From the sequence record PZ445442.1: DNA of 64,000 nucleotides; one strand, 5' to 3'. The notes beneath the pieces are model-generated. The model was given only the letters and a program-made list of their open reading frames with translations. It was not told where the DNA came from and made no database searches. Shown piece by piece: positions 2,134-47,074 of the stretch (positions are counted from its first letter, which is position 1; the number at the start of each line of letters is the position of its first letter). The stretch comes from a phage. A program made the position numbers and the translations under genes.

Positions 2134-4205
2134 TGGCAACAGCTGTTTTTAAACCTTACCGTGATTACTCTACAATGGCTGCACAGTTTCATTACCGAAC
2201 AGTTCAGGATACTGCCGTTCCTGGTAGAGATTATAATCATGTTGAGGGCGATGTAACTATCCCAATTGGGGCAACCAGTATTGAGATCCCAGTGGAAATT
2301 GTTGACAAATTACCCAACAGGTTACCAAGAAGCTTCTTTATGGAGTTTTCATCAAAATCTCAAGGGGTGATGATTGGGACACAAAGGGCGAAATGTACAA
2401 TAGTTTCAGATGAGAATCTTGACAGGATATCTTGGGATACTGTCGAGGAGAGAATGTTTCACCCAAGATATTGGGTTACAACTACTCAGCAGACTGAAAG
2501 TACTTGTATTGTTGCAGATAATAACTGTTGTATTAACCGTTTAGTGTCAAGAACATATGGAGGTATGGCTGGATGCATTTGGGAAACAGTTGACAAGTAT
2601 GACCATTTCGGTATTGGGTTTGATGATCACTATGAGATGAGAAACACCAAGCTTTGGTTCAGAATGTCAATAACCAACGCCAGCAACTTCTCCACTCCTG
2701 AAAAGATGATTATGACTGTAGACCTTGTTGATGGCACAATCATCTATGTTCCTTTAGCTCAATATGCTGTCAGCATCTCAGAGGATAAGAATGTTGCAGA
2801 AATTCATATTGATTTTGAGGACTGCGTCGGGATGGACCAGAACAACAACATGATGGGTGTTGATCCTCGGCAGGTGAGAAGGATTTTAATACCGCTCATG
2901 CCTAAAGACTGGGTAAGTAATAGCACAGACCCGAGAACGGAAAATGTAGAGTGTGAGTTGCGCCTAGATTTGCTTCAGCCAGACACAGGCTGGAAAATGA
3001 TGCAACTTAACAATATTCAGGTGAGAGAGCACGACGTTGGGATCTGCACCGCATATGACGATATGTGGAACGTATCTCCTTTAAGGGTGTTGAACAATAT
3101 CAAGCGTCTGGGCTATACCGGAACCATAAACCATTATGTTGGTATGAGTCATTATTATGACTACACATGGTCAGGAACCCAATGGTCTATAAACAGAACA
3201 GGAGCGCTAAACGCTGCAGCTTATAAATGGCATGATGATTTTATGTACAATGCCAAACGACATAACTTCGACGTTATGCAATCTGTAAGTTTTGAGCTTT
3301 TCAGCGATGCCTGCCCGTTGGAATGGACCCAAAGAGACTGGAACGATAACTACGCTAAAACAGGGTATACACCTTGTAGCTACCTCCTGTCTCCAACCAT
3401 TGAAGAGGGTATGAATTTCCTTACTGCAGTATTTAAGAATTTTGCATCAGCCGCTATGAGAAACAACCTGCCAGTGATTATGCAGGTTGGTGAACCGTGG
3501 TGGTGGTACAATACCGATACTCGTAAACCTTGTATTTATGATTACCCTACAAAACAGGCGTTTTATGATGAGACAGGCGAGTATGCATTAGATATTGGGA
3601 CTATTGACGATCCTAAAACTGGCGGTGTTTACGACAAGTATGTAGCATTTTGTCGTGGTAAGCTTGGCGCTCGTATTGCGGCTATTTCAAAGGCAATAAA
3701 GGCACACGCTGCATCAGCTCAGATGACAGCTTTGCTATTTTTCCCAACTATTATGGAAACCGAGCTTACGCAAAAGCTGAACCTTGCTGACCAATATAAA
3801 AAGGAAGCCGGAGCTCTTGATTTCTTCTGCACTGAGTGCTACGATTGGGTGATGCAGGGAGGTATTGAAAAGGCAAAAGAGTCTGTAAACATACCTATCG
3901 TTAAGTTAGGTTGGCAACCGTCTGAAATACAATACCTTGCAGGGTTCGTTCCTAGTAAAGAGCTTGCTCCGGTATATGGCTACGACCCAACTAGGAATTA
4001 CCAAGAATTTTTATGGAGATGTATTTGCGGAAACATGGCAACTATAGAGTATAGATACCCTGAGGTAAAACAGTATGTGTGGGCATACCCGCAAGTAATG
4101 TCTGACAGCATCACTGTTACCGCTAGAGATTCTACCGTGCTTCATATGGGGCAGGTTGCTCTGAAAGGGTATGTAGAAGATGTTGTCCCGCCAGACTTCT
4201 CATAA
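2133..4205 (+). CDS. hypothetical large structural protein (baseplate/tail)
   Basis: 690-aa ORF, translationally coupled to upstream gene, immediately upstream of tail fibre. Confidence 0.5.
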   Translation: MATAVFKPYRDYSTMAAQFHYRTVQDTAVPGRDYNHVEGDVTIPIGATSIEIPVEIVDKLPNRLPRSFFMEFSSKSQGVMIGTQRAKCTIVSDENLDRISWDTVEERMFHPRYWVTTTQQTESTCIVADNNCCINRLVSRTYGGMAGCIWETVDKYDHFGIGFDDHYEMRNTKLWFRMSITNASNFSTPEKMIMTVDLVDGTIIYVPLAQYAVSISEDKNVAEIHIDFEDCVGMDQNNNMMGVDPRQVRRILIPLMPKDWVSNSTDPRTENVECELRLDLLQPDTGWKMMQLNNIQVREHDVGICTAYDDMWNVSPLRVLNNIKRLGYTGTINHYVGMSHYYDYTWSGTQWSINRTGALNAAAYKWHDDFMYNAKRHNFDVMQSVSFELFSDACPLEWTQRDWNDNYAKTGYTPCSYLLSPTIEEGMNFLTAVFKNFASAAMRNNLPVIMQVGEPWWWYNTDTRKPCIYDYPTKQAFYDETGEYALDIGTIDDPKTGGVYDKYVAFCRGKLGARIAAISKAIKAHAASAQMTALLFFPTIMETELTQKLNLADQYKKEAGALDFFCTECYDWVMQGGIEKAKESVNIPIVKLGWQPSEIQYLAGFVPSKELAPVYGYDPTRNYQEFLWRCICGNMATIEYRYPEVKQYVWAYPQVMSDSITVTARDSTVLHMGQVALKGYVEDVVPPDFS

Positions 4206-21071: not shown

Positions 21072-22061
21072 TTATTTAACGTGCTTGAAAATACCAGCCA
21101 CCTCGGTCATTGTCATGCGAGTGGTCTTCATAAGGTCTGTCATAGCCTTCTCCATGATTGGAGATACTACCATGAAGTTACCTTTGGTGAAACCTTTGTT
21201 CCAGTCGGTAACTAATAGGGGTTTAAGTCCGGCACCGAGACGTTCACCAGTTAAAGCACAACATTTTCGAATGTATGTGCTCTTAAACTGGCTGAATGAC
21301 AGATCAACTTTCATACCTGCATCGTAGAACGTCTGGCAATAGAAAGTGTAAGCTTTGGCAATCTCAACATCGTCAGGCAGTGCAGGAACCTCTTCTGTAA
21401 GCTCTTCTTCGACTCCTTGAGGCTCTTTTTCCTCTTCGTAAGCCTGTTGCGTCATCTCTTCAATCTCCTCTACTACAGGCTCGTTTACAATGTCAGAAAT
21501 GTGCTTGTTGGCTCCACGATTAGCCATGAAGTTTTTAAAATCCTGCATTGGTGACATATCTTCCTCCCATTCTTCGTCAAAGAGTGCTAGTTTATCCTCT
21601 TCCGTTCCATATTGCAAGATGAAATCTTCAAAAGTGTAATCACCTTTCAATTTCTCCATACGCTCTTCGCTCAGGTGGAGCATCATCTGCTGGACAATTT
21701 TTCGATCAGTTTTGTCTTTAATCAAGACTGCGGTCTTTTTATCTACCAGACAGTCCTTTAGAGAGTTGCATCTCAATCCCACCACACAACAGTTATCAAC
21801 CGCATAAGGACCTTCATCATCTATCCGCTCTAGAGATGGGTAGAAAGGATTTCCCAGTCCGTTTTCATCTGTGTGCATGTCGAAAGGTATAAGGGTATAG
21901 TCGCATACTCCCTCTCCTAAAAGTTTTTTACCAAATAGGAGATATTCTTCCCATGACAGGTTGAACTCTATATCTCGTTTCCGTGCATTATTCTGTTTGC
22001 GTCTGTATTTTTTGAGCAAGCGCTCTAACTCTTCTGGTGCATAATATTTTTCAAGATTCAT
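21072..22061 (-). CDS. hypothetical protein with HNH-like N-terminal motif
   Basis: N-terminal SLERIDDEGPY..DN..VV resembles the DRID..GY..N motif of the HNH ORF at 45972; start moved to Met23 because a TTGACA-17-TAAGAT promoter lies inside the track's longer ORF. Confidence 0.45.
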   Translation of the reverse strand: MNLEKYYAPEELERLLKKYRRKQNNARKRDIEFNLSWEEYLLFGKKLLGEGVCDYTLIPFDMHTDENGLGNPFYPSLERIDDEGPYAVDNCCVVGLRCNSLKDCLVDKKTAVLIKDKTDRKIVQQMMLHLSEERMEKLKGDYTFEDFILQYGTEEDKLALFDEEWEEDMSPMQDFKNFMANRGANKHISDIVNEPVVEEIEEMTQQAYEEEKEPQGVEEELTEEVPALPDDVEIAKAYTFYCQTFYDAGMKVDLSFSQFKSTYIRKCCALTGERLGAGLKPLLVTDWNKGFTKGNFMVVSPIMEKAMTDLMKTTRMTMTEVAGIFKHVK

Positions 22062-33844: not shown

Positions 33845-34327
33845 ATGTCAGATTTTATGTGGAAAGTAGGCTATGCCACTCCTGAAATGTGCGAGGCTTG
33901 CTTTGTGAAAATAGGCCGCGAGGATATCGACAAAGTGATCCTTAAGTTTCGTGATGTGGCTGTGATCGGCAACCGAGTGCTTAAGCACTTAAAGAATCTG
34001 AAGCTCACCAAAAAGAAGTTCTTCGGGCTTTTCGAAGAGAAAGTTGATGCTTGGACCCATTGCATTCAGGAAGCTAAATCTCACTACAGTGCTATCGTTA
34101 CTCCAGAACGGGTAGCTAAGATGGAAGGATTCATTAACAGCACAGAATTTGAGTGTCTGAAAGCTGCACTCGATAGTTATCCGAAATGCCTTAAGCACTT
34201 GGACAAGTATGCAGAAAAGGATGGGGAAATGTATCTAACCCTGGACGCATATTATGAGATGCAAGAAATTTTAAATTTAGATTTGACATTGGTATCCACC
34301 GAGTATACAATAGGTATCCGGGTTTAA
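33845..34327 (+). CDS. hypothetical protein
   Basis: 160-aa ORF, RBS AAGGAGAGGG. Confidence 0.45.
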   Translation: MSDFMWKVGYATPEMCEACFVKIGREDIDKVILKFRDVAVIGNRVLKHLKNLKLTKKKFFGLFEEKVDAWTHCIQEAKSHYSAIVTPERVAKMEGFINSTEFECLKAALDSYPKCLKHLDKYAEKDGEMYLTLDAYYEMQEILNLDLTLVSTEYTIGIRV

Positions 34328-34333
34328 CACTAG

Positions 34334-34360
34334 GCCCTGCCCGAAAGGGTGGGGCTTTTT
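34334..34360 (+). terminator. Rho-independent terminator (copy 1 of a duplicated terminator)
   Basis: GCCCTGCCC-GAAA-GGGTGGGGC then TTTTT; same hairpin recurs at 46611. Confidence 0.6.
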
Positions 34361-34378
34361 GCATTAGGAGACAGCAAA

Positions 34379-35140
34379 TTGAAATTTATCTACAAAGAAC
34401 ACTACCACAAAGGTGTTGTGTGGAGTCTATTTGACGGGTCTGGTGGTGCAGTCATTGACTGGGCAAAAGCTGGGTACCTGTGCCTGTGCTTTAATGCAGA
34501 AGGCGCTGATCACGGCAGTTATGCAGAGGTGATCACCGATCATCCCAACATTCACTATGTGGACTATTGGATTGACCCGTGGTTCCCTCAGGAAACTTTT
34601 TGCATGTATCCGGCTCCAGATTTTATTCTTGCATTTCCTCCGTGCACGCATTTAGCGGTATCAGGTGCTGCACATTTTAAGAAAAAGCTGGCTAAGGACC
34701 CCATGATCCAAATTAATGCTGTAAAGGATGCTCGGGTTGCGGAAGAGCTGGGAGAGATTTACGATTGCCCGTGGCATGTAGAGAATCCTGTGGGTGTTAT
34801 GTCCACACTGTGGCGCAAACCTGATTACCGTTTTCACCCTTCGGATTATGGCGGGTATTTACCGGAAGATGATGTAAACCCATGGTTTCCTGAATTTATA
34901 GCTCCACGTGATGCCTATCCAAAAATAACTTGCGGCTGGATAGGTAATGGATTTATAATCCCAGCCACAAAACCTGTCCCGCAAATAGTTGACGCGGTTA
35001 GTGGGTACTCCATGCAACACGCTAAGCTGGGTGGAAAGAGTGCAAGAACGAAGATGATCCGAAGCCTCACACCACGTGGCTGGGCAAAAGCTGTATTCTT
35101 AGCAAACGAGCCTGTAGTAAGGAGAAGGGCCAATGGTTGA
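34379..35140 (+). CDS. DNA (cytosine-5)-methyltransferase-like protein
   Basis: Motif I SLFDGSGG, motif IV-like FPPCTHLAVSG (PC dipeptide), motif VI-like HVENPVG; probable TTG start at 34379 after RBS AGGAG (track ORF starts 34349). Confidence 0.5.
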   Translation: MKFIYKEHYHKGVVWSLFDGSGGAVIDWAKAGYLCLCFNAEGADHGSYAEVITDHPNIHYVDYWIDPWFPQETFCMYPAPDFILAFPPCTHLAVSGAAHFKKKLAKDPMIQINAVKDARVAEELGEIYDCPWHVENPVGVMSTLWRKPDYRFHPSDYGGYLPEDDVNPWFPEFIAPRDAYPKITCGWIGNGFIIPATKPVPQIVDAVSGYSMQHAKLGGKSARTKMIRSLTPRGWAKAVFLANEPVVRRRANG

Positions 35141-35804
35141 CTGGAGCAAGTATTTCACCTACAGTGACGGCAAACTGTTCTGGGCGTACACTGCAAAAGC
35201 CGGAAGGGGCAGGGTTATACATTACGCAGGTGAGGAGGCCACAGGCACAGATAAAAATGGCTATAGAGTGATATATGTGTCAGGTGTTGGGAGTGTTCGT
35301 AGGCATAGAATAGTTTGGGAGATGCATTACGGGGAGATACCTGAGGGACTTGTTGTGCGGCACAAGAACGACATAGCGGGCGATGATAGGGTAGAGAACT
35401 TAGTCCTAGGTACACAGGGCGATAATGCACGAGACATGATCTACAGTGACAAACTGAGCATTAACAATACCTCAGGGTGTAGAGGTGTACGCTACCATAG
35501 AGGCATAAAAAGATGGATTGCATCTGTTGGAGATATATACTTAGGGTGTTTTAAGACAAAAGAGGCTGCAATTGAATGCAGAAAGTTATGGGAGAAGGGA
35601 AAATTCGTCCCGCAAGAGTTGGATGTTAGAAACACTAGCGGTGTAACAGGGGTGTTCTATGTGCCGAGCTCTGGAAGGTGGAGAGTCAGAGTGCAAAGCG
35701 GCAAAAAGAGAAAGAGCTATGGCACTTACAATACTTTAGAAGAAGCAAAAACTGTAAGGGATAGAGTGATGAAAGAGATTGAGGAGTTTAAAGATGGGGA
35801 ATAA
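35133..35804 (+). CDS. HNH homing endonuclease with AP2-type DNA-binding repeats
   Basis: 223 aa; HNH region RHRIVWEMHYGEIPEGLVVRHKNDIAGDDRVENL; two AP2-like repeats (GCRGVRYHRGIKRWIASV, SGVTGVFYVPSSGRWRVRV). Confidence 0.6.
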   Translation: MVDWSKYFTYSDGKLFWAYTAKAGRGRVIHYAGEEATGTDKNGYRVIYVSGVGSVRRHRIVWEMHYGEIPEGLVVRHKNDIAGDDRVENLVLGTQGDNARDMIYSDKLSINNTSGCRGVRYHRGIKRWIASVGDIYLGCFKTKEAAIECRKLWEKGKFVPQELDVRNTSGVTGVFYVPSSGRWRVRVQSGKKRKSYGTYNTLEEAKTVRDRVMKEIEEFKDGE

Positions 35805-37872
35805 GTTTATATCCTCTGCATATAGCCGCTATGGAGAACCTAACCCAGTTGCAACAAGATACAAAAGTGGGGGTAGTATGAAACGAGACTATCGTGATGA
35901 AAAAGAGGTTGAAACTGTAGAGACTGTTTTAGAAAATACTAAAATTGTCCCTGTCCCACAACAAAATATCGGTCTGATGGCTGCACAATATTTTGGTGTG
36001 CGATCAGCATTGTCCCAAGAAGACGGTGTGACAGTCACTGCAACATATTTCCCATATTACGACCGATACGGAAATCTGTCCGGTTTCAAAAAGCGTGACT
36101 GGTCTAAGCCGAAAGAGCAGAAAGGGCACTGGTCTGTAGTAGGCATCGTAAAGGCCAACTCCCAGATGTTTGGTCAAAAGCTGTGTGCATCTTCCAACAA
36201 CCGTAAGCAGATCAACGTTTGTGAGGGAGAAGGTGATGTTATTGCAGCATGGCAGGCTGCATATCAGATACAAGTAAAAGGGATTCTCACCAATGCTAAA
36301 GCCCCGGCAAAGGTGAAGCAGTGGGCTAAAGAGGTCCAGGACGGGATCGATGCAGTTATCAACGGCGGTGATCTGGCAGGAAAACCCTGCCTGCCTTTTG
36401 TTGGAATTAACTGTGGATGTGCAAACGCAGTAGATACTTTTGCAAACAATGAGAAGTTTATCCGTAGCTATGGAACAGTTGTGCTGGCAATGGATAACGA
36501 TGCAGCTAACGAGGTAGAGAAGCAAAAACACGTCATTAAAGGTGTTGAGGCCACGCACAATATCGCAGCATTTTTAATGGCTGATAACGTTTACCACGTA
36601 GAATACCCTGGTGAAGTAAACGACCCTGACGGTGTAAAAGATATCCGAGACATGCTGAAGGCTAAAAAGCTGGAAGATATTGTCAACATGTTCCGGCATC
36701 CTGTTAAATATGTGCCTGATGCTGTGTCGGATTTAGAAGACTTCTCTATCGAGTCTTTGCGGAAAAAGACTTCCAACGGGGTAGATATCAGTGCAGAGTT
36801 CCCAAAACTGCAAAAAATGCTAAAAGGCTTGCACAAAGGGACACTCGTAATGCTTACAGGTCCATCAGGCGGCGGTAAAACAACCGTGGCTAAAAAACTG
36901 GAACACTGTATTGCAAGATACCTAATGGATCCGACATGCCAGAAGGCTGATGACTATGAAGAGGATGATCGTCTATGTATGATCCATCTTGAGGAGGACC
37001 CAGAGGAAGCAATTAACTCCTTGTATGCAAACCAGTTAGGGTTTGATGTTAAAGAGTTTGTTGAAGATCCTAGCCAGTTTTTAACTGATCAAGAACACGC
37101 AGAGATTCACCAATCATGGGCAAAAGCTGGAAAAATCAAAGTGTTCAAACATTTCGGGTCTATTCCGGTGGACGAGTTGATTACCAAGCTTAAGCAAATG
37201 GTTTGCCTGTACCATTGTCGTTATATTGTGCTGGATCACCTATCCATGGTAATTTCAGGGCTTAATGTTAAGGATGAGCGAAAAGAACTGGACATAGCTA
37301 TGACTCAGCTGGCTGCGTTTTGTAAGCAGTTTAATGTGTTTATCTTGGTGATCGCTCACCTCAAACGTACAGAGATTGTGCCTCCTAAGGACAAGGATGG
37401 TAACCCGTTACCTTTCTGGTATCCTGTGCGAAAAGAGAATTTGCGAGGATCGGCTGGGCTTGAGCAGTTGAGTTGGGTAGTCATAGGTGTCGAGGCCGAA
37501 GAAATGGTGGATCGTTCTCGTGGGCGTGTCCGTCTGGTAGGTCTTAAAAACCGTCCAGCAAAAACTTTAGGTATTGCTGACACTTTAGTTATGGACCCAC
37601 ACACAGGTAAGTTCCATGATGCCAGTAATTGGTACTGGGACAAAGAAATGCAAATGTTTACAGACGGAGAAGGTGGGGAGGTTGTTTGGAGACCTCAGGC
37701 TATGTTTGAGGATCAGGAGCATGCAGTTGTAGAAACACCTATGGGCAAGGTTGTGGCTGATAAGGTTGTAACTCCTACTGTTAAGTCTGTTGACACGCAG
37801 GAAGACCTCCAGTACGATGATCCATCCTCTGACCCGGTCCCCGGTTTTGAGGATGATGAAACGCCTTTTTAA
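35794..37872 (+). CDS. primase-helicase (T7 gp4-like: Toprim primase + DnaB-family helicase)
   Basis: Toprim-like CEGEGDVIAAW; Walker A LTGPSGGGKTT; Walker B YIVLDHLSMV; start ATG 35794 after RBS GAGGAG. Confidence 0.65.
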   Translation: MGNKFISSAYSRYGEPNPVATRYKSGGSMKRDYRDEKEVETVETVLENTKIVPVPQQNIGLMAAQYFGVRSALSQEDGVTVTATYFPYYDRYGNLSGFKKRDWSKPKEQKGHWSVVGIVKANSQMFGQKLCASSNNRKQINVCEGEGDVIAAWQAAYQIQVKGILTNAKAPAKVKQWAKEVQDGIDAVINGGDLAGKPCLPFVGINCGCANAVDTFANNEKFIRSYGTVVLAMDNDAANEVEKQKHVIKGVEATHNIAAFLMADNVYHVEYPGEVNDPDGVKDIRDMLKAKKLEDIVNMFRHPVKYVPDAVSDLEDFSIESLRKKTSNGVDISAEFPKLQKMLKGLHKGTLVMLTGPSGGGKTTVAKKLEHCIARYLMDPTCQKADDYEEDDRLCMIHLEEDPEEAINSLYANQLGFDVKEFVEDPSQFLTDQEHAEIHQSWAKAGKIKVFKHFGSIPVDELITKLKQMVCLYHCRYIVLDHLSMVISGLNVKDERKELDIAMTQLAAFCKQFNVFILVIAHLKRTEIVPPKDKDGNPLPFWYPVRKENLRGSAGLEQLSWVVIGVEAEEMVDRSRGRVRLVGLKNRPAKTLGIADTLVMDPHTGKFHDASNWYWDKEMQMFTDGEGGEVVWRPQAMFEDQEHAVVETPMGKVVADKVVTPTVKSVDTQEDLQYDDPSSDPVPGFEDDETPF

Positions 37873-37930
37873 TGTTTAACAAAGAGTGGGAGGGGTAGTA
37901 CAACCGCCTCCCCTTTAAGGAGAACTGTAT

Positions 37931-40321
37931 ATGAGTATGTGGTCGTTCGATTTTGAGTCATCCGGTTTGCTGGAAGACCCAGATCTTTATTATCACTGCG
38001 GTCTGTTTAAAGAGCTGAATAAGAACCGTTTTATGCTGTTCCTTCCTCTAAATGACCGCACACACTACTCCGAGGAGGATATAGAAAAGGCTAAGAACTT
38101 CATTCTGGCAAAGAAAACTCTTTATAAAGATTTTGAAGTTCGCATAGCAGATTTTTCGGAGTTGGAAGGTTGGCTTACAGGCAATTCTGACTGGTCACCA
38201 ACAGCTTTGAACTGCCATAACTGCTACAGTTATGACTTTATGCTGATGGAAAGATTATCCGGTATTCATTTTGATATGTTCCGTGATCCTAAATGCATGG
38301 GGACTATCAACGATCACCAGGTTAACCTGTTTGATACGTTGGCGATGAGCCGAATCTTGTGGCCTGATCGCCCTTTACCAAAAGGTTGTCCGGACTCTGT
38401 ATTCAACCCGGTTACTAAGAAAATGCAGCCTGTTGGTCCCCACGGCCTTATGGCATGGGGCTACGCCCTTGGTAACCAGAAAGTTCAAATTGATGACTGG
38501 CGCGATCTTCCGTTGTGGAAGTATGTGGATCGTGTATTCGAGGACGTTATCATCCAGGAGCTGCTCTGGAAAGAGCTGGTAGCGGAATCAAAAGGTGTAT
38601 TCTACGGCAAATCTGACATGCAGAACTTTATGTACGATCCTGCCAAAGAGAAGCCGAAAGGGTTCAAGAAGATCACCTGGAAGAACGCATTACGCCGAGG
38701 CATGCTGCAGCACTTCCTGATGGAGCTGCAGGCCCGTCAGGGTGTGTATTTTGACATAGATGGAGCTATTGCTTTACGTGACCGTTGCGATGCGTGGATG
38801 AAAGAAATCGCTGATCGTGTTGAACCACAACTACCTTTAAAAGAGTTGTCAATGTCTCAGCGGCCCAAGTTCCCTGAAAAGCCGTTTAACCAAGATGGGA
38901 CAATCTCCAATAATGGTTGGAAATGGTTAAAAGATAAGCTTGGCTATCCTGTAGATATGAGCGCTTTAGAGTTCAAAGCCCCGCCTAAGCGAGCATTTAC
39001 CTCCACAGGGGATGTCAGCAAGATGGGGATAAAATGGTGTGAAGAGATGGGCTGCAAAGACCCTGATAAGATGGCTGATTTCTTGAGAGGCTATATTAAG
39101 GGCACTTCCACACCACAACCTTTACCTAAAGAGCTGATGGATCAGGCAATAAGTGATCTGCAGCAGAAGCGAATGCCTGACTGCAAGATACCTATGAAAA
39201 TCAGCAATCAGGACGACATTAAGCGGTATCTGATCAGTGCTGGCTGGCTCCCGACGATGTGGAGAACTAAGGATGTAACTAAAGACAGCAAGAAGAAAGC
39301 CCTACCTGATGCAGATGTTGATGCACGAGTATATGCATATATGGACGAGCTTTTAGAGTCAGAGTATTGTGATCTGATTATCAACTTCTGGAACAAAACT
39401 GATGCTAAGTTCCAGACAACCGTGCACAAGTTCCGAAGCTTTCCTAACTCCGAAAGGATTAAAAAGGAAGTATTCGGGAAAATACGTAGAAAAGCTAGGG
39501 CACTTATTACTTCTCCGCAACTGAAAGATACGTTTGGACACCTATGCCCGAATCTTGAAAAATTGAACGGAGAGATGGCTAAAGATATCGTCTTGTGGTT
39601 ATCTTTGCGAAACCGCAGATCGGTACTTGATCCAATCAAGGAGGATAAGGTTGATACTGGTCTTCTTAATCACCCACGTTTGAAGATTGACCATAAGCTT
39701 CCTGCTAAAAGCTCTGGATTAACAAACACTTCCAGACAGAAACACAGTATTTGTGCAAACATGCCTAAACCATCTCCTAAAGTGGTCATGGGTAAAGAGA
39801 TGCGTAGTCTGTGGGGTGTTCCTCCAGGATACTTTGAGATCGGTATTGACGGGTCCAACTTAGAGCAGCTTATCGGGGCTTGGGGTGCCTTTGAGTTCGA
39901 CAACGGATTGTATTATGATGTTGTAAGTAACGGGGACGCACACCAAAACAATGCTGAAGCATATACAAAAGTGGCAGGCAGAGAGGTGTCTCGTAACGAC
40001 GGTAAACCTATCACGTATGGGGTTATGTATGGGGCACAAAAAGATAAAGTTGCAGATATGCTGGACATCTCTCCAGAACTGGGGCAGAGAGTAATTGATG
40101 CTCTCTGGGATGCCAACCCAGGTCTTAAGGGGCGCAAAGAGGATCTGGAGAAATTCTGGGAAGCAACAGGTAAGAAATTTATCTACTCTTTTGACGGGCA
40201 TGCCATTTGGACCCGCTCTAAACACTCTTTGCTTAATGCATATCAGCAAAATGGCGGTGCATCGTTGTGCGACTTGGTCGGAATCCTCATGCACCACCAA
40301 ATGGTGAAGCGTGGATGGTAT
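37931..40321 (+). CDS. family A DNA polymerase, exon 1 (3'-5' exo + polymerase motifs A and B)
   Basis: Exo I FDFESSGL; motif A GIDGSNLEQLIGAW; motif B KPITYGVMYGAQ; track ORF runs 12 codons further into the intron to a stop at 40360. Confidence 0.65.
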
Positions 40322-41196
40322 GATGAAGGTGTTCGTCGTATTATTTATTACCATAAATAACATTGTGGCTTCGTGCAGTGATGCACGTCGAAAACCTCTT
40401 TAATTGACGGGAAGGCTAAGTTGACTTTTACACCTAAACATGGTAAAAGCTCAATATGCTAATCCGCAGCGAAGACTAAAGGGGTGTAGTTAAAATGGCT
40501 AGATCAGTTGATTATCACGGATATACCGTGTTTGATGATGGAACAATACCTTTATCGAAACGTGATCATACAACAATGTTCTGTTTTGATAATGGTCGAG
40601 GTTACCTTTGCGTAACCATGTTCATCGAGGGGAAGCAGTGCACAAAAGGTGTCCACCACTTGGTTGCTGAATGCTTTGTATCAAACCCTGATCCTGAAAG
40701 GCTCACATGGGTGAACCATAAGGACGGAAACAAATACAACAATGCATACTGGAACCTTGAATGGACCACCCCTGGTGGAAATATCAAACACGCTTATGAT
40801 AATGACCTCAGAGTAAGGCCAGTCGGTGAGTATAATGCCAACGCTGTACTGACCGAGGATGAGGTAACGGAGATTTGCGAACTGTTACAAAGTGGTTTAC
40901 GACAATGCGAGATTAGGGATCTTGGGTATCCTTATGAGACGGTCAGAGCCATAAAGCAAAGAAGACAGTGGAAACATATCTCTAAAAACTACACCTGGTA
41001 GTAACGTTCAGAGACTATCGAAAGCATAGCGCCAACATAAATTGGTGCGAAGAAGCGAGTAGAGTAGGCCAGCAAGTGCGGTCGAAATGGGAGGTGCCTT
41101 GGTAACAAGGTAGTGAGATAGTCCGATCCATACAGGAAACTGTATGGCTGTGCACGTAATGGTGCGGGGTAGCTTAACGACCTACCTGAACTATTG
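40322..41196 (+). mobile_element. group I intron with HNH homing endonuclease ORF, inside the DNA polymerase gene
   Basis: Elements matching the conserved P (AATTGACGGGAA, 40402-40413), Q (AATCCGCAGC, 40461-40470), R (GTTCAGAGACTATC, 41006-41019) and S (GAGATAGTCC, 41115-41124) sequences; P9-like hairpin CCATACAG-GAAA-CTGTATGG (41128-41147); U at -1 (40321) and terminal G (41196); boundaries inferred. Confidence 0.6.
40495..41001 (+). CDS. intron-encoded HNH homing endonuclease
   Basis: 168 aa; HNH region GVHHLVAECFVSNPDPERLTWVNHKDGNKYNNAYWNLEW; lies between intron Q and R elements. Confidence 0.65.
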   Translation: MARSVDYHGYTVFDDGTIPLSKRDHTTMFCFDNGRGYLCVTMFIEGKQCTKGVHHLVAECFVSNPDPERLTWVNHKDGNKYNNAYWNLEWTTPGGNIKHAYDNDLRVRPVGEYNANAVLTEDEVTEICELLQSGLRQCEIRDLGYPYETVRAIKQRRQWKHISKNYTW

Positions 41197-41550
41197 GATG
41201 AGTACCAACTTCAAGTGCCTGACACACCTAAGTATAAAACCGTATACACCTTCGACACAATTGAAGAGCTGGAAACATTTAAGGCCAAGCAGGAGGCTAA
41301 ACTTCATGTGTTCGACGGTCATAAGTACAAAAAGGCACGCAAGGATGAGGATGGAAACGAAGTGGTTGACAAGGACGGAAATACGGTGTACGATCCTATC
41401 CTGAACGATGACGGAAAGCTTGAACTTATCTGGAGCCCTGTGGGTGAAATGGTGGTGCATTGCTTCTGGCAAGCTTCTAAAATGATGGGAGTCCCGTTCC
41501 AGATCACAGGTGAATACTTGTGTGGTCGTAATTGGGGTGATTGTCACTAA
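41197..41550 (+). CDS. family A DNA polymerase, exon 2 (C-terminal region)
   Basis: Begins DEYQLQV, which joined to exon 1 gives GWY|DEYQLQV (motif C-like); ends GRNWGDCH with terminal His, as I recall for T7 gp5 and E. coli Pol I. Confidence 0.55.
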   Translation, partial: DEYQLQVPDTPKYKTVYTFDTIEELETFKAKQEAKLHVFDGHKYKKARKDEDGNEVVDKDGNTVYDPILNDDGKLELIWSPVGEMVVHCFWQASKMMGVPFQITGEYLCGRNWGDCH

Positions 41551-41599
41551 TGTAAACTATCAACACATGGAAGTGTTGTTGAGCAAAGAGGAGACTTTT

Positions 41600-41884
41600 A
41601 TGGTAGTAGAACCAACAAAAACATTTACATCCATGACTATCCCTGTTATTATGCAGGTGGAGTGTGTTCAGGTATCTCAAGTGTGGCCTGGCACCAAAAT
41701 CCCAACAGGGCCTGATTTCTTTCAGGTTGGGAAAGTGTACAATGTCTGGAAGGCACCAGATTGTTACCCTTTCATTAAAGATGACCGTGGGATGCTGTGG
41801 TACCTTGGAAATGACTTGACACTGCACCTTGGGAATACTATTATTGCAGTATTCAGACTTAACAAGAAGGAGACCGATCAATGA
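41600..41884 (+). CDS. small protein, tandem paralog family B
   Basis: 94 aa from ATG 41600 (RBS AGAGGAG); shares GK.Y.V......D..G..W core with neighbours. Confidence 0.4.
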   Translation: MVVEPTKTFTSMTIPVIMQVECVQVSQVWPGTKIPTGPDFFQVGKVYNVWKAPDCYPFIKDDRGMLWYLGNDLTLHLGNTIIAVFRLNKKETDQ

Positions 41885-42108
41885 CGACTTTGGTTAAAGC
41901 TACCTTTGTAGAAGAAAAGATGACAGACCTGTCATTCTTTAAAGAAGGAAAGACCTACGAGGTTTATTACGATAAAGCTCGTGCAAACAAAATGATTAAA
42001 GACGAGGAAGGGGTTGCCTGGTATATCTCTCACCTGGCAAACGGTGAGTATCATATCTACGGAACCACTTTGCTTGCCAAGTTTGTAGTTGTTGAAGAGG
42101 ACCTATGA
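41881..42108 (+). CDS. small protein, tandem paralog family B
   Basis: 75 aa; GKTYEVYYDK..DEEGVAWYISHLANGEYHIYG. Confidence 0.45.
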   Translation: MTTLVKATFVEEKMTDLSFFKEGKTYEVYYDKARANKMIKDEEGVAWYISHLANGEYHIYGTTLLAKFVVVEEDL

Positions 42109-42299
42109 AAGTAAAGTATCTTGCTGAAGGTATGAATAGGTATTTTACCCTTGGTGAAGAATATTGGCCCTTTACAAACAACGGCGATGTCTACGTGAAA
42201 GATAATTTCGGCACGCCGTGGTTTCTGCACTCTAATGGGCTGGGATACTCCATTTACTGCGGTGCAGTGAACAACACAACTCTTGCAGAGTTCGTTTAG
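42105..42299 (+). CDS. small protein, tandem paralog family B
   Basis: 64 aa; GEEYWPFTNNGDVYVKDNFGTPWFLHSNG. Confidence 0.45.
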   Translation: MKVKYLAEGMNRYFTLGEEYWPFTNNGDVYVKDNFGTPWFLHSNGLGYSIYCGAVNNTTLAEFV

Positions 42300-42309
42300 A
42301 GGAGGTAGG

Positions 42310-42681
42310 ATGTTAGTAAAAGGTACCCACACAGTCAAACAACGTATTGAAGTTGAGATTGATGATTGTGAGCTGAAGCATATTTTACGGTCATGCTCCA
42401 ACGTTTTGCTCCTTAGTATTCTTCAGGAGCGAGCGGAGAAAGAGTTCTTAAATGCATTGGCAGGCCGTCCCGGTGACTTCTGTGTGCGTAAGCGTGGTGA
42501 CAACAAGTCGTGGTTGTGGGAGATCGATGCCGACTGGGATTACCACAAAAATGAGGGTATAGATGAGCCTATTCGTGAACTGACGGACAAAGAGATTCAG
42601 ATGTACAATGAAGTTTGTCATTGGGCAACACGCCAACAAATTTACCTAGACCCTGTGTGGCTGATTGAAAATAGTCGTTGA
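42310..42681 (+). CDS. hypothetical protein
   Basis: 123 aa from ATG 42310 (RBS GAGGAGG). Confidence 0.45.
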   Translation: MLVKGTHTVKQRIEVEIDDCELKHILRSCSNVLLLSILQERAEKEFLNALAGRPGDFCVRKRGDNKSWLWEIDADWDYHKNEGIDEPIRELTDKEIQMYNEVCHWATRQQIYLDPVWLIENSR

Positions 42682-42757
42682 CAAGAAGTAAGGCTAGATG
42701 TAAGATACTCCCCACAAACAGAGTATTGATTGTTAAATAATTAAGGAGACCTCTAAG

Positions 42758-43012
42758 ATGAAAATCATGTTGAAACCAGAATGCGTTGCAAACGACCGAG
42801 CTTTTAAAGATTGCACACTTGGCGCTACTTATGAAGCAGAGTTTTGTGAGAACCCTTTGGTAAAAGCCCTTTTGGAAGAAGGGGCCCCTCTATCACAAGA
42901 AGAGCTTGATGAGCTGGAAAACTCAGCACAGTGCCTTACCTTTAAAGATGATGAAGGAGACTCTGTCTGGTGCACTGTTAATGAAGTAGTTTTTGTAAAA
43001 CCTGAACATTAA
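42758..43012 (+). CDS. small protein (paralog of 43076..43336)
   Basis: 84 aa; DRAFKDCTLGATYEA..DDEGDSVWCTVNEVVFV; RBS AAGGAGA. Confidence 0.45.
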   Translation: MKIMLKPECVANDRAFKDCTLGATYEAEFCENPLVKALLEEGAPLSQEELDELENSAQCLTFKDDEGDSVWCTVNEVVFVKPEH

Positions 43013-43075
43013 TACTTGACAACAGTGATGGGGCCTAATATAATGGCCCTATCAAAACGAAAGGGGACCACAGCA

Positions 43076-43336
43076 ATGACCAAACAATATCAACGAATTA
43101 AAGCCAAGGTTAAGCCAGACTATCTGGAGAAAGACTCTGCTTTTCGGGACTGCACAGCCGACAAAGTTTACACAGGGGCTGTCCTGTTGAACGATAAACT
43201 TGAAGTAGATGTGCTGGGTAAAGAGGCCGTTATCGAGGATGACAACGGTGACTGTGTTTTCTGCACCACACGAGAGCTAGAAGTCTTAGAATATTTCGGT
43301 GAAATCTTCAACTCCTTAGACGACGAGGAAGCGTGA
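43076..43336 (+). CDS. small protein (paralog of 42758..43012)
   Basis: 86 aa from ATG 43076; DSAFRDCTADKVYTGA..DDNGDCVFCTTRELEVL. Confidence 0.45.
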   Translation: MTKQYQRIKAKVKPDYLEKDSAFRDCTADKVYTGAVLLNDKLEVDVLGKEAVIEDDNGDCVFCTTRELEVLEYFGEIFNSLDDEEA

Positions 43337-43725
43337 TGAAAAATATTTGGGATATCGATATCTTTGAAGCCTCTAAGCTTGACGGTGCTGATGGAGTGAT
43401 TATGGTGTCTGATGGCAAGGCAACACTAACTTCCGGAGATATCATCTATGCCTTGGACGAGCTGGCGCTTCTGAAATCTACCGGTAACACTTTGGAGGAG
43501 CGTCTTCAAGGATTCTCTTTCAAAGAAGGTACAAATACAGCCATGATGTGCACCACACGGACAGTTCAGGTTGGTAACGGTGTCTATATGATTATTGCTG
43601 TGTGTCCTAAATTCAGCAACGTCAACAAAGATGATGCTGACGCGGTCAACGATGTGGTTGTTCTCTTCGTGGGTGACGCTATGGCAGATCTGATGAATGC
43701 AGGAGAAGCAGCAAATGAAGACTGA
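43333..43725 (+). CDS. hypothetical protein
   Basis: 130-aa ORF, ATGA overlap. Confidence 0.45.
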   Translation: MMKNIWDIDIFEASKLDGADGVIMVSDGKATLTSGDIIYALDELALLKSTGNTLEERLQGFSFKEGTNTAMMCTTRTVQVGNGVYMIIAVCPKFSNVNKDDADAVNDVVVLFVGDAMADLMNAGEAANED

Positions 43726-44017
43726 AAACATCACCCCAGCAGGGTTCTTAAAAGTATACCGTGAACTGCTATATACTACAGAGGACAGTGTTCTAGAGTA
43801 TCCAGAATATCTTTTGCTGTATAAGTATCTGCAGGAGGCTGGTGAAAATCTGCCAGTTAGTGCAGAAGGTGGTCCAAACTGGATATACAGCGCATGGAGA
43901 AAGGTTGACATTCTCCCAGACCCAGGTAAAGATATGGTAGTTTGGCAGCTTATCAACAACATCGGGATTCCAATCTTTGATGAAGCTGTTAAAATCTATT
44001 TTGAACTTGACGATTAA
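43715..44017 (+). CDS. hypothetical protein
   Basis: 100 aa from ATG 43715 (RBS AGGAGA); the track ORF starts 18 nt earlier. Confidence 0.4.
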   Translation: MKTENITPAGFLKVYRELLYTTEDSVLEYPEYLLLYKYLQEAGENLPVSAEGGPNWIYSAWRKVDILPDPGKDMVVWQLINNIGIPIFDEAVKIYFELDD

Positions 44018-44034
44018 TATCAGGAGACCTTAAG

Positions 44035-44280
44035 ATGACTGAAGCAGTTGCTCGCGCAGGACAGAAAGTACGTTGTGTTGAAGTAGGTTTTGGTGGCAAA
44101 GGGTGTCAAAACTTGACTCAAGGTAAGGAATACGCTGTTATCTCTGGGGGTGGAGACGAAAGTATTGTGTTCGAGGGCCACATCCTGGGTGCTGAAAACT
44201 TTGAAATCTTTGACGACGATGGGGACCCGATCACCTGCCTGCTGGACGGGAATTGGGGAACTTTCGAAGTGATTGGCTAA
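44035..44280 (+). CDS. small protein, family B-like
   Basis: 81 aa; QGKEYAVISGGGDESIVFEGHILG; RBS AGGAGA. Confidence 0.45.
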   Translation: MTEAVARAGQKVRCVEVGFGGKGCQNLTQGKEYAVISGGGDESIVFEGHILGAENFEIFDDDGDPITCLLDGNWGTFEVIG

Positions 44281-44363
44281 CAAATACCTATTGTAATTTA
44301 CAGAAGGGGATGCTAAAATAGTGTCTCCTTCTATGTTGTTCAAATAAAATCGGAGATTCCATA

Positions 44364-44729
44364 ATGGAACAAATGAACGATCAAGCGTCGGTTGCGATGA
44401 ACGAGCAAGAACAACCTCAAGAATTTTTCTTAGGGTTAAGTAAAGATCAAGTGTCTCTTCTGCTAGTGCTTTCTTCTTTCATGGGAAGACTTCAGGAGCT
44501 TACACAACAGCCAGAGGCTGAACAATTATTCCAGGCTCTGCGTGAAGAAGAAAAATATCGTCGTTTGGACTATGCCTTAGGTTGGGTAGCTCAACAACGA
44601 GATATGCTGATGGCCCTCTCTGGGACCACAAGTTTTGCAATGGGCCTGTTGGCTCAAGTTCAGGACAAATTAATTCAAGCAGGGTTTGCACACACGGCAA
44701 ACACTAACGAAGAACAAGGAGATAAATAA
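44364..44729 (+). CDS. hypothetical protein
   Basis: 121-aa ORF, RBS GGAGA. Confidence 0.45.
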   Translation: MEQMNDQASVAMNEQEQPQEFFLGLSKDQVSLLLVLSSFMGRLQELTQQPEAEQLFQALREEEKYRRLDYALGWVAQQRDMLMALSGTTSFAMGLLAQVQDKLIQAGFAHTANTNEEQGDK

Positions 44730-46000
44730 TGAGCGTTATTCAACAATTCGCTAACCCGATGAATCCGCGTGAAACTGTTTTACTAGCTCACGGCATGATT
44801 AAACGTGTCAGCATCAAGCCTATCAAAGGTGCTGATCCTACAACAGGTATTAAAACCACTGTGTGGCAAGGTAAGAAAATTGAATCCAGCCACACCATCT
44901 CTTTACTGATTTCTGAACTGGATTCCTCTGATAACCTACTTCAAGGTGGTGAAGAAGTTTGGATCAGTATGGGCGATAAGCTGCTTAAACCAGGTCATCA
45001 AGACTCTGTCTCTGTTAAAATTGATGACAAGTGGGAAACCGTAACGCCAGGATGGATCGTAAATATCCCTTTGAAGGCAAACGAGCATAACGGTAAGACC
45101 TACTACAAAGGCTCACTGGCTAAGATGGTTAAGCTGGGTGCAGGAGAGGCTCCAGCAGCGACTCAGCAGCAAAAACAGCAACAAGGTGCACAATCACAAG
45201 GCCAGAAGCAGAAACCTCAGCAGAATGCCAATCAGGGCGTTTTACGCATCTATGGTGATGTGACTCAGATTGTTGGCAACGTGGTTACTGTTAATGACCA
45301 CAAGATTGGCGAAGGTGCTATGGTTGTAACTGATGAGCAGCTTAAAGACCTAGTGGTAGGTGGTCGTGTTGCAGCCATTGTTGACAAAGACACCGGAAAC
45401 ATTATCAGTGGTTTCAAGGCCTATCCTCCTAAGGCAGAGAACGGTACTCAAGGCTCCGGTGGCAAGCGTAAATCCTCTTACGACCCTATTGGTGTGGAGA
45501 CGGGGCATAGCATCAATGCGTTGCAGATCATCCTGGATCGCGGGTTTAAGGTGGACGACCCACTAGGTGTGGCTAAAACACTGCACGTAGTCACCATTGA
45601 GCTTAAGAAAGAGTATGCTCAAGCCACCAACCGAACTGAAGATGAAGTAGGTGCCAGTGTCGGTAATGCGGTGTTGAACGCTTGTCGCCGTATTGACAAG
45701 AAAACGAAAGTTGATGATTTTGCAGCGGCAATTACTGCAGAAGCAAAAGATGTCTTGACTAATCTGGCTGAGCCGTTGTACGATTGGATCAAGAACGGTG
45801 CTGAGTCCACTGACCATCAAGAACCTCAAGCTGCCAAACAGGAAGCCGCTCCACAGCAAAACACTGTAGACGCACCTCCTGTAAATGATGAGGAAGATGA
45901 CCCGATGGGTCAGAATCCGGCGCAGTATGACTTCTGTGATGACATACCTTTCGCTCCGGTAGGTTTGCAATATGGCAAAAGTAGAATCCACGCATTGTAA
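44729..46000 (+). CDS. putative ssDNA-binding protein (SSB-like acidic tail with DDIPF)
   Basis: 423 aa; Gln-rich linker and acidic C-terminal region ending ..[22 protein letters not shown] plus a 17-aa extension that overlaps the next gene. Confidence 0.45.
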
Positions 46001-46595
46001 GAGGTGCATCAAGTGCGGAGAGGTGAAAGACATCTCCGAGTTCTACAAACACCCAAAGATGTCTGACGGTCATCTTAATAAGTGCAAAGAGTGTTGCAAG
46101 AAGGCCAGCAGGGAGGCTGACCAATTTTCCCACGACTCTTCAGAAAAAGGTGTAATACGCGTGCTGTACAAGGCTCAAAAGTGCAACAGCAAGCAAAGAG
46201 GTCACCCGCCTCCGACTTACACCAAAAAAGAGTTTAAGGAGTGGCTATACCTAAACGGTTACAAAGAGTTGTATGATCAGTGGGTAGCCAGCGGATACGA
46301 CAAAAGGAAAAAGCCTTCTTGTGACAGGATAGATGATTTCAAAGGGTACTCTTTTGATAATATCCGTTTAACGACTTGGGGAGAAAATAAAGACAAGCAG
46401 ACAGAGGATATTCTGTTGCATAGAAGCACCAGCGGTAGACGGTGTAAAAATGTAAGGAGGCTGGACATGAATGGCAACGTTCTTAAAGAATGGGTATCCC
46501 ACAATTCTTGTAGAAGAGAAACCGGAATATGTGTTGATTACTACATTCATGAAAAAATTCCAGCCCCAGATGGATACCTCTACGAATACTTTTAG
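45972..46595 (+). CDS. HNH-type homing endonuclease with N-terminal zinc finger
   Basis: 207 aa; CKRCIKCG...CKECCKK zinc-finger-like; [23 protein letters not shown] nuclease motif; overlaps the 3' end of the SSB-like gene. Confidence 0.5.
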
Positions 46596-46610
46596 CACCT
46601 AACTAACATA

Positions 46611-46638
46611 GCCCTGCCCGAAAGGGTGGGGCATTTTT
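46611..46638 (+). terminator. Rho-independent terminator (copy 2 of duplicated terminator)
   Basis: Same GCCCTGCCC-GAAA-GGGTGGGGC hairpin as at 34334, followed by ATTTTT. Confidence 0.6.
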
Positions 46639-46657
46639 GTATAAGGAGATCTGAAAA

Positions 46658-47074
46658 ATGACATTAGAAGATATCATTGTTAAACCTGAGAACTATGACC
46701 AATACAACCTGTCAACTCAATCTGTAGACCTTGGATGCGCCACAGTTAGTGCGTGGCTGGTTAACGGAAAAGAGCTGGACAAGTGCTTAGAAGCTCACAT
46801 GTCTGTTAACAAGTTTCTGGATGAAAATACTCACTGGCTGGAAGGTGCAGGCGTATATGCTTCATGGTTGGAGAGCATGGGCTTTGACTATCAATCTGAT
46901 GAAGGGTGGTGGAGCTATCTAGCTATCTGTCCAGAAACACTGCAATGCTTCATGAAATACTCTGAAGATCTTGAGTACCGAGCGGTGGTTGATAGTGCTA
47001 TTGCCCGTTATAGCCGTAAACCTTTTTCCCACGACATTAAAACTGTGGAAGAGTTTGTTGAAGTTTTCTGTTGA
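46658..47074 (+). CDS. hypothetical protein
   Basis: 138-aa ORF, RBS AAGGAGA. Confidence 0.45.
   Translation: MTLEDIIVKPENYDQYNLSTQSVDLGCATVSAWLVNGKELDKCLEAHMSVNKFLDENTHWLEGAGVYASWLESMGFDYQSDEGWWSYLAICPETLQCFMKYSEDLEYRAVVDSAIARYSRKPFSHDIKTVEEFVEVFC

Follow-up and report, generated by a model that had tools for sequence, protein, structure and literature searches.

Three putative homing-endonuclease genes of the His-Me finger superfamily in the replication module of an rV5-like phage

The replication module of the phage sequence PZ445442.1 contains three nuclease genes in or beside conserved genes, raising the question whether these are mobile elements or resident genes of the phage. Homing endonuclease genes, like group I introns, usually cluster in and around the replication genes of large lytic phages, scrambling the local phylogeny there. 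The window, the whole stretch of 64,000 nucleotides that was analysed, is 100% identical to Escherichia phage EmilHeitz (Bas49, MZ501062.1), an rV5-like Vequintavirus. In the GenBank record of EmilHeitz the three ORFs are each labelled a putative homing endonuclease and the polymerase is given as a joined CDS; the depositors of the record delimited introns and homing endonucleases through comparative genomics (PMC8594841). The three mobile-looking nuclease genes in the replication block are real, ordinary for large phages and were publicly annotated before. An earlier note made from the raw sequence had called three homing-endonuclease genes, one intronic and two free-standing, and domain searches, presence or absence in relatives and the GenBank annotation agree with it. 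The call also matches the usual biology of large lytic phages and serves mainly as a sanity check. The replication module very probably carries three selfish genes of the His-Me finger (HNH) superfamily that putatively home via co-conversion. Domain identity, base-precise presence or absence in close relatives, identity and boundaries of the intron and the flank patterns could be observed directly. The presence and absence of the three elements were counted in approximately 128 related records, and all three showed a patchy distribution with base-precise boundaries at a fixed site. As had been proposed, the insertion points are in or beside conserved replication genes, namely at the methyltransferase/primase-helicase junction, in motif C of the polymerase and at the 3´ end of the SSB-like gene.

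The first element, HEG1, is located between a methyltransferase and a primase/helicase gene:

34379..35140, + strand: Dcm-like C5 cytosine methyltransferase gene (GenBank bas49_0074; phrog_757, E 3.6e-87)
35133..35804, + strand: HEG1, free-standing HNH_3 endonuclease gene with an AP2-type DNA-binding region (Pfam, PHROG)
35133..35793, + strand: 661-nt segment missing from HEG1-less relatives (alignments, column count)
35794..37872, + strand: DNA primase/helicase gene (phrog_239, 1.8e-159; Pfam DnaB_C, AAA_25; GenBank bas49_0076)
35794..35882, + strand: 89-nt tract linked to HEG1, at the 5´ end of the primase gene (alignment differences)

Only 5 of the approximately 128 related records carry HEG1. 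Pfam identified HNH_3 (5e-17, 61.7 bits, cut-off 24.8) and AP2 (2.3e-10, residues 169-216), the PHROG match was phrog_99 (1.7e-51), and the translation contains the His-Me finger motif with residues H77, N89 and N98. The PDB sequence search gave no match for HEG1, and the Pfam search none for the methyltransferase gene. By eye, a second AP2-like repeat is visible at approximately residues 112-155 of HEG1. The HNH-AP2 ORF that had been noticed between the two neighbouring genes is confirmed by both Pfam domains and by the insertion of the 661-nt segment exactly at their junction. This segment rebuilds the stop/start overlap of the primase gene (ATGGGGAATAA versus ATGGGAAGTAA) and, by reading of the sequence, appears to provide a new primase Shine-Dalgarno, GAGGAG. 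In the alignment, the last 4-5 codons of the methyltransferase gene differ between phages with and without HEG1.

Upstream of HEG1, the EmilHeitz flank differs from that of the HEG-less phage WalterGehring at 6 of 954 positions, and from that of the HEG-bearing HeinrichReichert at 34 of 954. The HeinrichReichert flank in turn differs from that of the HEG-less AlexBoehm at 4 of 954 positions. HEG1 was thereby found in two flanking haplotypes, each near-identical to a HEG-less phage, with one short downstream tract, in which the HEG-bearing phages of this comparison differ at 4 of 89 positions. This 89-nt tract shows 2-6 differences among the HEG1-bearing phages and 24-25 differences to HEG1-less phages, with JEP1 being intermediate; it is a candidate for a co-conversion tract or a cleavage-resistant target. 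Copies of HEG1 diverge by up to 6.5% (43/661), thus HEG1 is not a very recent arrival.

The second element is located within the polymerase gene:

37931..40354, + strand: exon 1 of the family-A DNA polymerase, 808 codons, ending ...IIYYH (phrog_17, phrog_8888; DrSchubert boundary; translation)
40355..41196, + strand: group I intron, 842 nt (Rfam RF00028; boundaries from the intron-less DrSchubert and translation)
40495..41001, + strand: HEG2, HNH endonuclease gene resembling I-HmuI, in the intron P6 loop (phrog_59, PDB 1u3e, Rfam alignment)
41197..41550, + strand: exon 2 of the DNA polymerase, 117 codons plus stop, beginning DEYQL (alignment, translation)

Catalytic motif C of the polymerase is interrupted between H and DE (...YYH/DEYQL, aligned to ...VHDEIQV of T7 polymerase), with the junctions ...TACCAT/AAATAACATTGTGG... 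and ...CTATTG/GATGAG. Excision leaves 2424 + 354 = 2778 nt, which is the length of the uninterrupted DrSchubert gene. The ends are those of a group I intron, U being last in the 5´ exon and G last in the intron, and ligation keeps the reading frame. By hand-pairing, CCAU at the 5´ exon end pairs with an internal guide GUGG as P1. Rfam at gathering thresholds returned nothing for the whole window; the intron match surfaced with an E-value threshold on a short stretch, where RF00028 (gathering score 50) scored 38.9 bits (E 5e-8) over the full length of the model (positions 1-253). The match was validated through ORF-less homologs, with 73.7 bits for the JEP1 copy and 64.7 bits for the rV5 intron, which occupies the same site, and the same model found no match in the intron-less DrSchubert allele. 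The 510-nt insertion with HEG2 falls in the P6 region of the Rfam alignment. HEG2 matches phrog_59 (9.3e-38) and I-HmuI (PDB 1u3e, E 4.5e-6, with aligned motif) and weakly Pfam HNH_3 (17.7 bits, under the cut-off of 24.8); residues H75, N87 and N96 are conserved (motif vHhLva...vnHKDGNK.NN..NLeW). A second HNH had been suspected within the polymerase intron, and the P6 position, the I-HmuI match and the retained catalytic His and Asn bear this out.

Among the approximately 128 records, 33 have the intron with the ORF, at least 4 the same intron without it and approximately 24 an rV5-type ORF-less intron. About half have an intron-less polymerase, with single-piece junctions in 32 of 60 sampled rows. 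Comparison of AlexBoehm (intron) with DrSchubert (intron-less) revealed no difference in 120 upstream positions, four changes, all synonymous, within the first 12 nt of exon 2, and none in the 115 positions beyond; these four changes are also present in alleles with ORF-less introns. The flank patterns of HEG1 and of the intron fit homing with co-conversion. Other causes are possible as well, given the intermediate state of JEP1 in the HEG1 tract and the presence of the exon-2 changes next to ORF-less introns.

The third element overlaps the 3´ end of the SSB-like gene:

44729..46000, + strand: SSB-like gene (OB-fold domains, helical domain, disordered acidic tail ...YDFCDDIPF, 15-aa extension)
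45953..46592, + strand: 640-nt segment missing from AlexBoehm-type relatives (alignment)
45972..46595, + strand: HEG3, free-standing PacI-like His-Me finger gene (fold, homolog comparison)
34334..34355, + strand: hairpin GCCCTGCCCGAAAGGGTGGGGC with a T-run behind it, 5´ of the module (sequence context)
46611..46632, + strand: hairpin identical to GCCCTGCCCGAAAGGGTGGGGC, directly 3´ of HEG3 (sequence)

HEG3 is present in 52 of the approximately 128 records, and its relatives are scattered over unrelated Vibrio, Acinetobacter and N4-like phages. It gave no Pfam match even at E<=10. The protein consists of an N-terminal Cys4 zinc ribbon, a core with Tyr126 and a C-terminal region, which in some homologs has NUMOD/I-HmuI-type Pfam domains. 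The beta-beta-alpha-metal fold is present, whereas the end of the first core strand, where the general-base His would be expected, is occupied by D118-R119, invariant in 48 homologs. An invariant loop Tyr, Y126, which is aligned to PacI Y100, replaces the catalytic His. In the classification of His-Me fingers PacI belongs to group 20, with Tyr in place of His (PMC5714182). The earlier note had seen here a third HNH overlapping the SSB-like gene: the overlap and the His-Me fold are real, but HEG3 is not a canonical HNH since it is without the catalytic His. With this reservation profile searches back the nuclease folds of all three ORFs, that of HEG1 by Pfam, that of HEG2 by I-HmuI and HNH PHROGs, and that of HEG3 as a PacI-like His-Me finger.

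The 640-nt segment comprises the tail extension of the SSB-like protein and HEG3 as far as its stop codon. The most plausible reading of the HEG3-less allele is a secondary deletion in which the ancestral 15-aa tail was lost too, and not a naive target; L013 seems to retain HEG3 remnants. The comparison with relatives that had been suggested gave base-precise boundaries at all three sites, but the "empty" allele at the HEG3 site probably arose by later loss. The SSB-like protein has an OB-fold ssDNA-binding domain and a disordered acidic tail with a DDIPF-type tip; it found no Pfam match even at E<=10, and the PDB sequence search returned nothing useful. Its C-terminus exists in two forms, one with a free E. 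coli-SSB-like DDIPF tip and one in which the tip is capped by a conserved 15-aa tail, AP(V/I)GLQY...(A/L). Delivery of this extension by HEG3, masking the tip, was ruled out: the extension is found in distant homologs without a downstream nuclease gene and also in an 82%-identical HEG3-less relative. In rV5-like phages the two forms go with the presence or absence of HEG3, which might interest specialists, as might the finding that the gene widely named "endonuclease VII" in these phages encodes a PacI-like nuclease without the catalytic His and is distributed like a mobile element. We tentatively raise the possibility, which we regard as doubtful, that HEG3 represents an uncharacterised PacI-type class of phage homing endonucleases and that, in addition, its turnover switches the SSB-like C-terminus between the two forms. 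If true, the coming and going of a selfish element would reshape a motif through which an essential replication protein probably contacts host proteins.

One further ORF had been suggested to contain an HNH-like motif:

21072..22061, - strand: anti-sigma factor by annotation, a core gene; weak PacI-like relic motif PSLERIDDEGPYAVDN

This ORF gave no Pfam match even at E<=10 and was ruled out as a fourth homing endonuclease, being present in every related record matching it. It does not belong to the mobile set.

Each of the three genes is positioned such that the essential neighbour is not inactivated. HEG1 fits precisely between the Dcm-like stop codon and the primase/helicase start codon, rebuilding the stop/start overlap and the ribosome-binding site for the primase; RNA splicing of the predicted intron would restore the polymerase interrupted between His and Asp; and HEG3 begins within the final codons of the SSB-like gene. 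If the three genes are homing endonucleases, then upon co-infection with a relative without the element, the nuclease would nick or cut that allele near the insertion point, and recombinational repair from the element-bearing genome would then copy the element together with a short flanking stretch. From the sequences we infer cleavage, its target sites, splicing in EmilHeitz and continuing mobility.

It might also be possible, though rather unlikely, that the three genes are old residents which have lost homing and are now neutral or domesticated, their patchiness resulting from repeated deletion and recombination among rV5-like phages. Exclusion of related phages and DNA-binding regulators are examples of such domestication, and the BASEL authors noted pervasive gene conversion in these genomes (PMC8594841). 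The 6.5% divergence of HEG1 copies, the ORF-less introns at the same polymerase site, and the HEG3-less allele, which resembles a deletion taking the ancestral SSB tail, with apparent remnants in L013, would agree with long residence. However, all three ORFs are intact with conserved catalytic residues, and HEG1 is found in two flanking haplotypes, each close to that of a HEG-less phage, yet linked to one downstream tract, as homing with co-conversion produces; more than 100 independent losses would otherwise be required. Long residence moreover overlaps with homing as the best explanation, since homing elements cycle through invasion, decay and loss.

Two other explanations concern single genes. 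HEG3 could be a housekeeping junction-resolving enzyme like T4 endonuclease VII, debranching DNA before packaging and not selfish. It is located in the replication module adjoining the SSB-like gene, and phrog_1035 and many related records carry this name for it; it shows neither an Endonuclease_7 match nor a catalytic His nor the conservation of a core gene for packaging or repair, and we consider this function very unlikely. Even less probable is a polymerase made of two separate polypeptides from a split gene without splicing, the intervening segment being merely an inserted HNH gene. Several records annotate two polymerase CDSs, the EmilHeitz intron scores under the Rfam gathering threshold, and some HNH-associated interruptions in phage CB7 are unspliced (PMC7344957). 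Against this, the group I match spans the full model and is strong in the ORF-less copy (73.7 bits), the terminal U and G are in place, and excision is exactly colinear with the uninterrupted gene. In addition, the break lies between His and Asp of catalytic motif C, and the exon-2 ORF is without a good start of its own, its only in-frame candidate being a TTG 3 nt upstream.

Homing endonucleases in a replication module have counterparts in several known systems. I-HmuI from Bacillus phage SPO1 (PDB 1u3e) is, like HEG2, an HNH endonuclease encoded inside a group I intron of a family-A DNA polymerase gene. The alignment with HEG2 covers residues 12-100 and preserves the motif; sequence similarity (E 4.5e-6) is confined to the N-terminal nuclease half, and the host phages are unrelated. 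I-HmuI nicks DNA. T4-like phages contain free-standing Seg and Mob homing endonuclease genes, which are likewise intergenic between conserved genes, patchy in relatives and accompanied by co-conversion of the markers beside them. The Seg proteins belong to the GIY-YIG enzymes, whereas HEG1 combines HNH_3 with AP2 and HEG3 is PacI-like. Pectobacterium phage CB7 (Certrevirus) belongs to the same subfamily as EmilHeitz, Vequintavirinae, and also has HNH-containing introns in the polymerase gene, with an additional free-standing HNH beside it. It differs in that its polymerase gene has two introns and its genome 23 homing endonuclease genes altogether; its HNH-bearing polymerase introns splice, as determined by RT-PCR (PMC7344957). 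HEG3 shares the superfamily, a His-Me finger with zinc site, with T4 endonuclease VII (gp49), whose name appears in many annotations of HEG3. Sequence similarity of HEG3 to PacI (PDB 3ldy, 3m7k) is marginal (E 0.18), and unlike PacI it has an extra C-terminal region and is a patchy intergenic gene in phage genomes; by analogy with PacI, its Tyr would act as the nucleophile.

Over its replication region (34000-47000), the window matches Escherichia phage EmilHeitz at 100% identity (Bas49, MZ501062.1; MZ501062.1 position = window position + 32682), a Vequintavirus (rV5-like myovirus) and member of the BASEL collection. Approximately 128 related records matched this region, 109 of them covering at least 80% of it. 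Sixteen unannotated GenBank records titled "Campylobacter phage" (MG0656xx), with Campylobacter jejuni given as host, share 94-99% identity with these E. coli Vequintaviruses; their host labels look doubtful. The features discussed are:

34334-34355, hairpin copy just upstream of the Dcm-like methyltransferase gene
35133-35804, HEG1, first endonuclease gene (223-aa product; Pfam HNH_3 and AP2)
40355-41196, intron of the DNA polymerase gene (Rfam RF00028 and comparison with phage DrSchubert)
40495-41001, HEG2, ORF in this intron (I-HmuI and phrog_59 matches)
45972-46595, HEG3 (ORF3), overlapping the tail of the SSB-like gene
46611-46632, hairpin copy just downstream of HEG3
21072-22061, minus strand, fourth ORF, annotated as anti-sigma factor

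The proposal that HEG1 is an HNH-AP2 endonuclease gene between the methyltransferase-like and primase-helicase genes was borne out by Pfam (HNH_3, E 5e-17; AP2, E 2.3e-10); H77, N89 and N98 are the motif residues read from the translation, in which two AP2-like repeats are visible by eye. HEG1 is present in only five of the ~128 related records, and alignment with relatives lacking it revealed a precise 661-nt insertion (35133-35793) with clean edges between ...GTAAGGAG and the primase ATG. The final codons of the Dcm-like gene are replaced by the element, and the HEG1 start context, A-ATG-G, is the same as that of the primase start in phages without HEG1. At its 3' end HEG1 rebuilds the stop/start overlap with the primase gene (ATGGGGAATAA versus ATGGGAAGTAA), and a GAGGAG upstream of the primase start is read as the element's own putative ribosome-binding site; with both, the essential primase gene downstream would keep its translational coupling.

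Across 954 nt upstream of HEG1, EmilHeitz differs at six positions from WalterGehring, which lacks HEG1, and at 34 from HeinrichReichert, which carries it, while HeinrichReichert shows only four differences from AlexBoehm, again without HEG1. Downstream, the three HEG1-bearing phages have the opening 89 nt of the primase gene in common (2-6 differences); phages without HEG1 all show 24-25/89 differences from this tract, except JEP1, which is intermediate (12/89). The upstream flanks nearly match phages without the gene, the downstream tract stays linked to it, and this is taken as evidence for movement of HEG1: homing with co-conversion would place an element, together with a short stretch linked to it, into different backgrounds.

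The second HNH gene, suggested to lie within the polymerase intron, was confirmed there. The intron-less family-A polymerase gene of DrSchubert (2778 nt) fixed the boundaries: exon 1 ends at 40354 (...TAC CAT), exon 2 begins at 41197 (GAT GAG...), and the exon lengths of 2424 and 354 nt add up to the DrSchubert gene. By hand-pairing, the U terminating the 5' exon pairs with the G of the guide GUGG; the last base of the intron is G. RF00028 matched the EmilHeitz intron over its full length (38.9 bits, E 5e-8; gathering score 50), and HEG2 lies in a 510-nt insertion within the P6 region. In JEP1 the ORF-free version of this intron, and in rV5 a distinct ORF-less intron occupying that position, scored above the gathering score (73.7 and 64.7 bits), and the RF00028 search of the intron-less DrSchubert allele gave no match. 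HEG2 itself, sub-threshold by Pfam alone, matched I-HmuI (1u3e; E 4.5e-6, with H75, N87 and N96 conserved) and phrog_59 (9.3e-38). The junction ...RRIIYYH|DEYQLQV aligns with ...AWVHDEIQV of T7 DNA polymerase, where HDE is polymerase motif C, bearing the catalytic carboxylates.

The intron with the ORF was found in 33 records, the cognate ORF-less intron in at least four and the rV5-type intron in about 24; approximately half are intron-less (single-piece junctions in 32 of 60 sampled rows). AlexBoehm, with the intron, and DrSchubert, without it, are identical across 120 nt upstream and from positions 16 to 130 nt downstream of the site. The opening 12 nt of exon 2 hold four differences between them, one at the third position of each of four successive codons (GATGAGTACCAA versus GACGAATATCAG). 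The rV5-type intron allele has the same four changes, so their role may be in P10 pairing, in immunity to the nuclease, or in both; when paired by hand, position 3 would match the guide sequence. In JEP1, polymerase exon 1 (locus L006, 3102-6500) is annotated with 3399 nt versus 2424 nt in EmilHeitz, a difference suggestive of an additional in-frame insert, for example an intein or a fused endonuclease.

For the third endonuclease gene, the overlap with the SSB-like gene stood; its predicted chemistry is atypical, and Pfam found no domain in HEG3. The name "endonuclease VII", given by PHROGs and many GenBank records, is unsupported. HEG3 occurs in only 52 of the ~128 related records, its homologs are scattered among unrelated Vibrio, Acinetobacter and N4-like phages, and some of them contain NUMOD/I-HmuI-type Pfam domains. 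Its distribution and architecture are those of a free-standing homing endonuclease gene.

The SSB-like protein of EmilHeitz has an extra 15-residue tail, and the ORF3 start codon lies within the tail's Tyr-Gly codons. In the alignment AlexBoehm lacks a 640-nt block (45953-46592) comprising tail and ORF3 together, and its SSB-like gene stops directly after ...DDIPF, where the ORF3 stop codon sits. WalterGehring has a second ORF3 variant with a different 5' end, and its SSB-like gene stops at ...DDSIPF. Import of the tail by HEG3 was considered and rejected, since the same tail is found in homologs whose downstream neighbour is a non-nuclease gene (Serratia phage Kashira, Salmonella phage SSBI34 and two metagenomic contigs). 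Conservation of the tail extends to homologs with 28-45% identity and no nuclease neighbour, and the tail is also present in an 82%-identical metagenomic relative (L013) that lacks ORF3 and retains apparent short remnants of both ORF3 ends; by these comparisons, the tail is ancestral. The AlexBoehm-type allele is most plausibly a deletion and not a naive target; the event may have taken place between two near-repeats, ATACCTTT and ATACTTTT, that were spotted by eye in the alignment. Comparison with relatives lacking the endonucleases defined boundaries at all three sites; the "empty" site of HEG3 is most plausibly a derived one.

In L013, the spacer after the SSB-like gene (3255-3382; Logan ERR13959479) seems to retain two stretches collinear with HEG3, ~17 nt similar to its 5' end and 22 nt with 18 identities to its 3' end, and looks like a decayed copy. 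On this reading, HEG3 polymorphism stems in part from decay and loss of the element, and the C-terminus that the SSB-like protein carries is linked to HEG3 turnover. Two C-terminal forms, an E. coli-SSB-like tip ...DDIPF and the tip plus the 15-aa tail AP(V/I)GLQY(G/A)xxxI(Y/H)A(L/I), were found among close and distant relatives (window 45953-46000; homologs P0102-P0173; loci L009-L014). The tail would cap the C-terminal Phe, which is normally free.

The fourth ORF, which the earlier note had added to the homing set as HNH-like, has to be removed from it: it is a core gene, full-length in all 118 related records matching it. Its PHROG matches are phrog_3118 ("HNH endonuclease") and Srd/anti-sigma families, and it has only a short PSLERIDD..Y..DN motif in common with ORF3. 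Possibly, it carries a relic nuclease-like domain; its weak PacI-like motif (PSLERIDDEGPYAVDN) may mark a domain of nuclease origin that has taken on a different function.

The view that the insertions lie in or beside replication genes and reflect homing is supported by patchy distribution and flank patterns. WalterGehring encodes another "putative homing endonuclease" (244 aa; L005, 3571-4305) between the primase/helicase and polymerase genes, where EmilHeitz has only a 58-nt spacer (37873-37930); this makes four landing sites in the module. The module is bracketed by a 22-nt hairpin, GCCCTGCCCGAAAGGGTGGGGC, with a T-run after it; exactly two copies, identical to each other, lie in the 64-kb window, against none expected by chance. 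No homing endonucleases beyond the three are annotated elsewhere in this window.

In the deposited EmilHeitz annotation, bas49_0075, bas49_0078 and bas49_0090 are labelled "putative homing endonuclease", and the DNA polymerase is a two-piece joined CDS flanking bas49_0078. The depositors set intron boundaries associated with homing endonucleases through comparative annotation and described large genomes of this kind as "infested" with homing endonuclease genes (PMC8594841). In the paper on the rV5 genome, introns are mentioned for the terminase gene alone (PMC3606486). In phage CB7 (Certrevirus, a sister genus), splicing was shown for HNH-containing polymerase introns (PMC7344957). Given the matching annotation, the depositors' statement and the CB7 precedent, the finding of three endonuclease genes is correct, yet already known, and everything found here falls within known phage biology.
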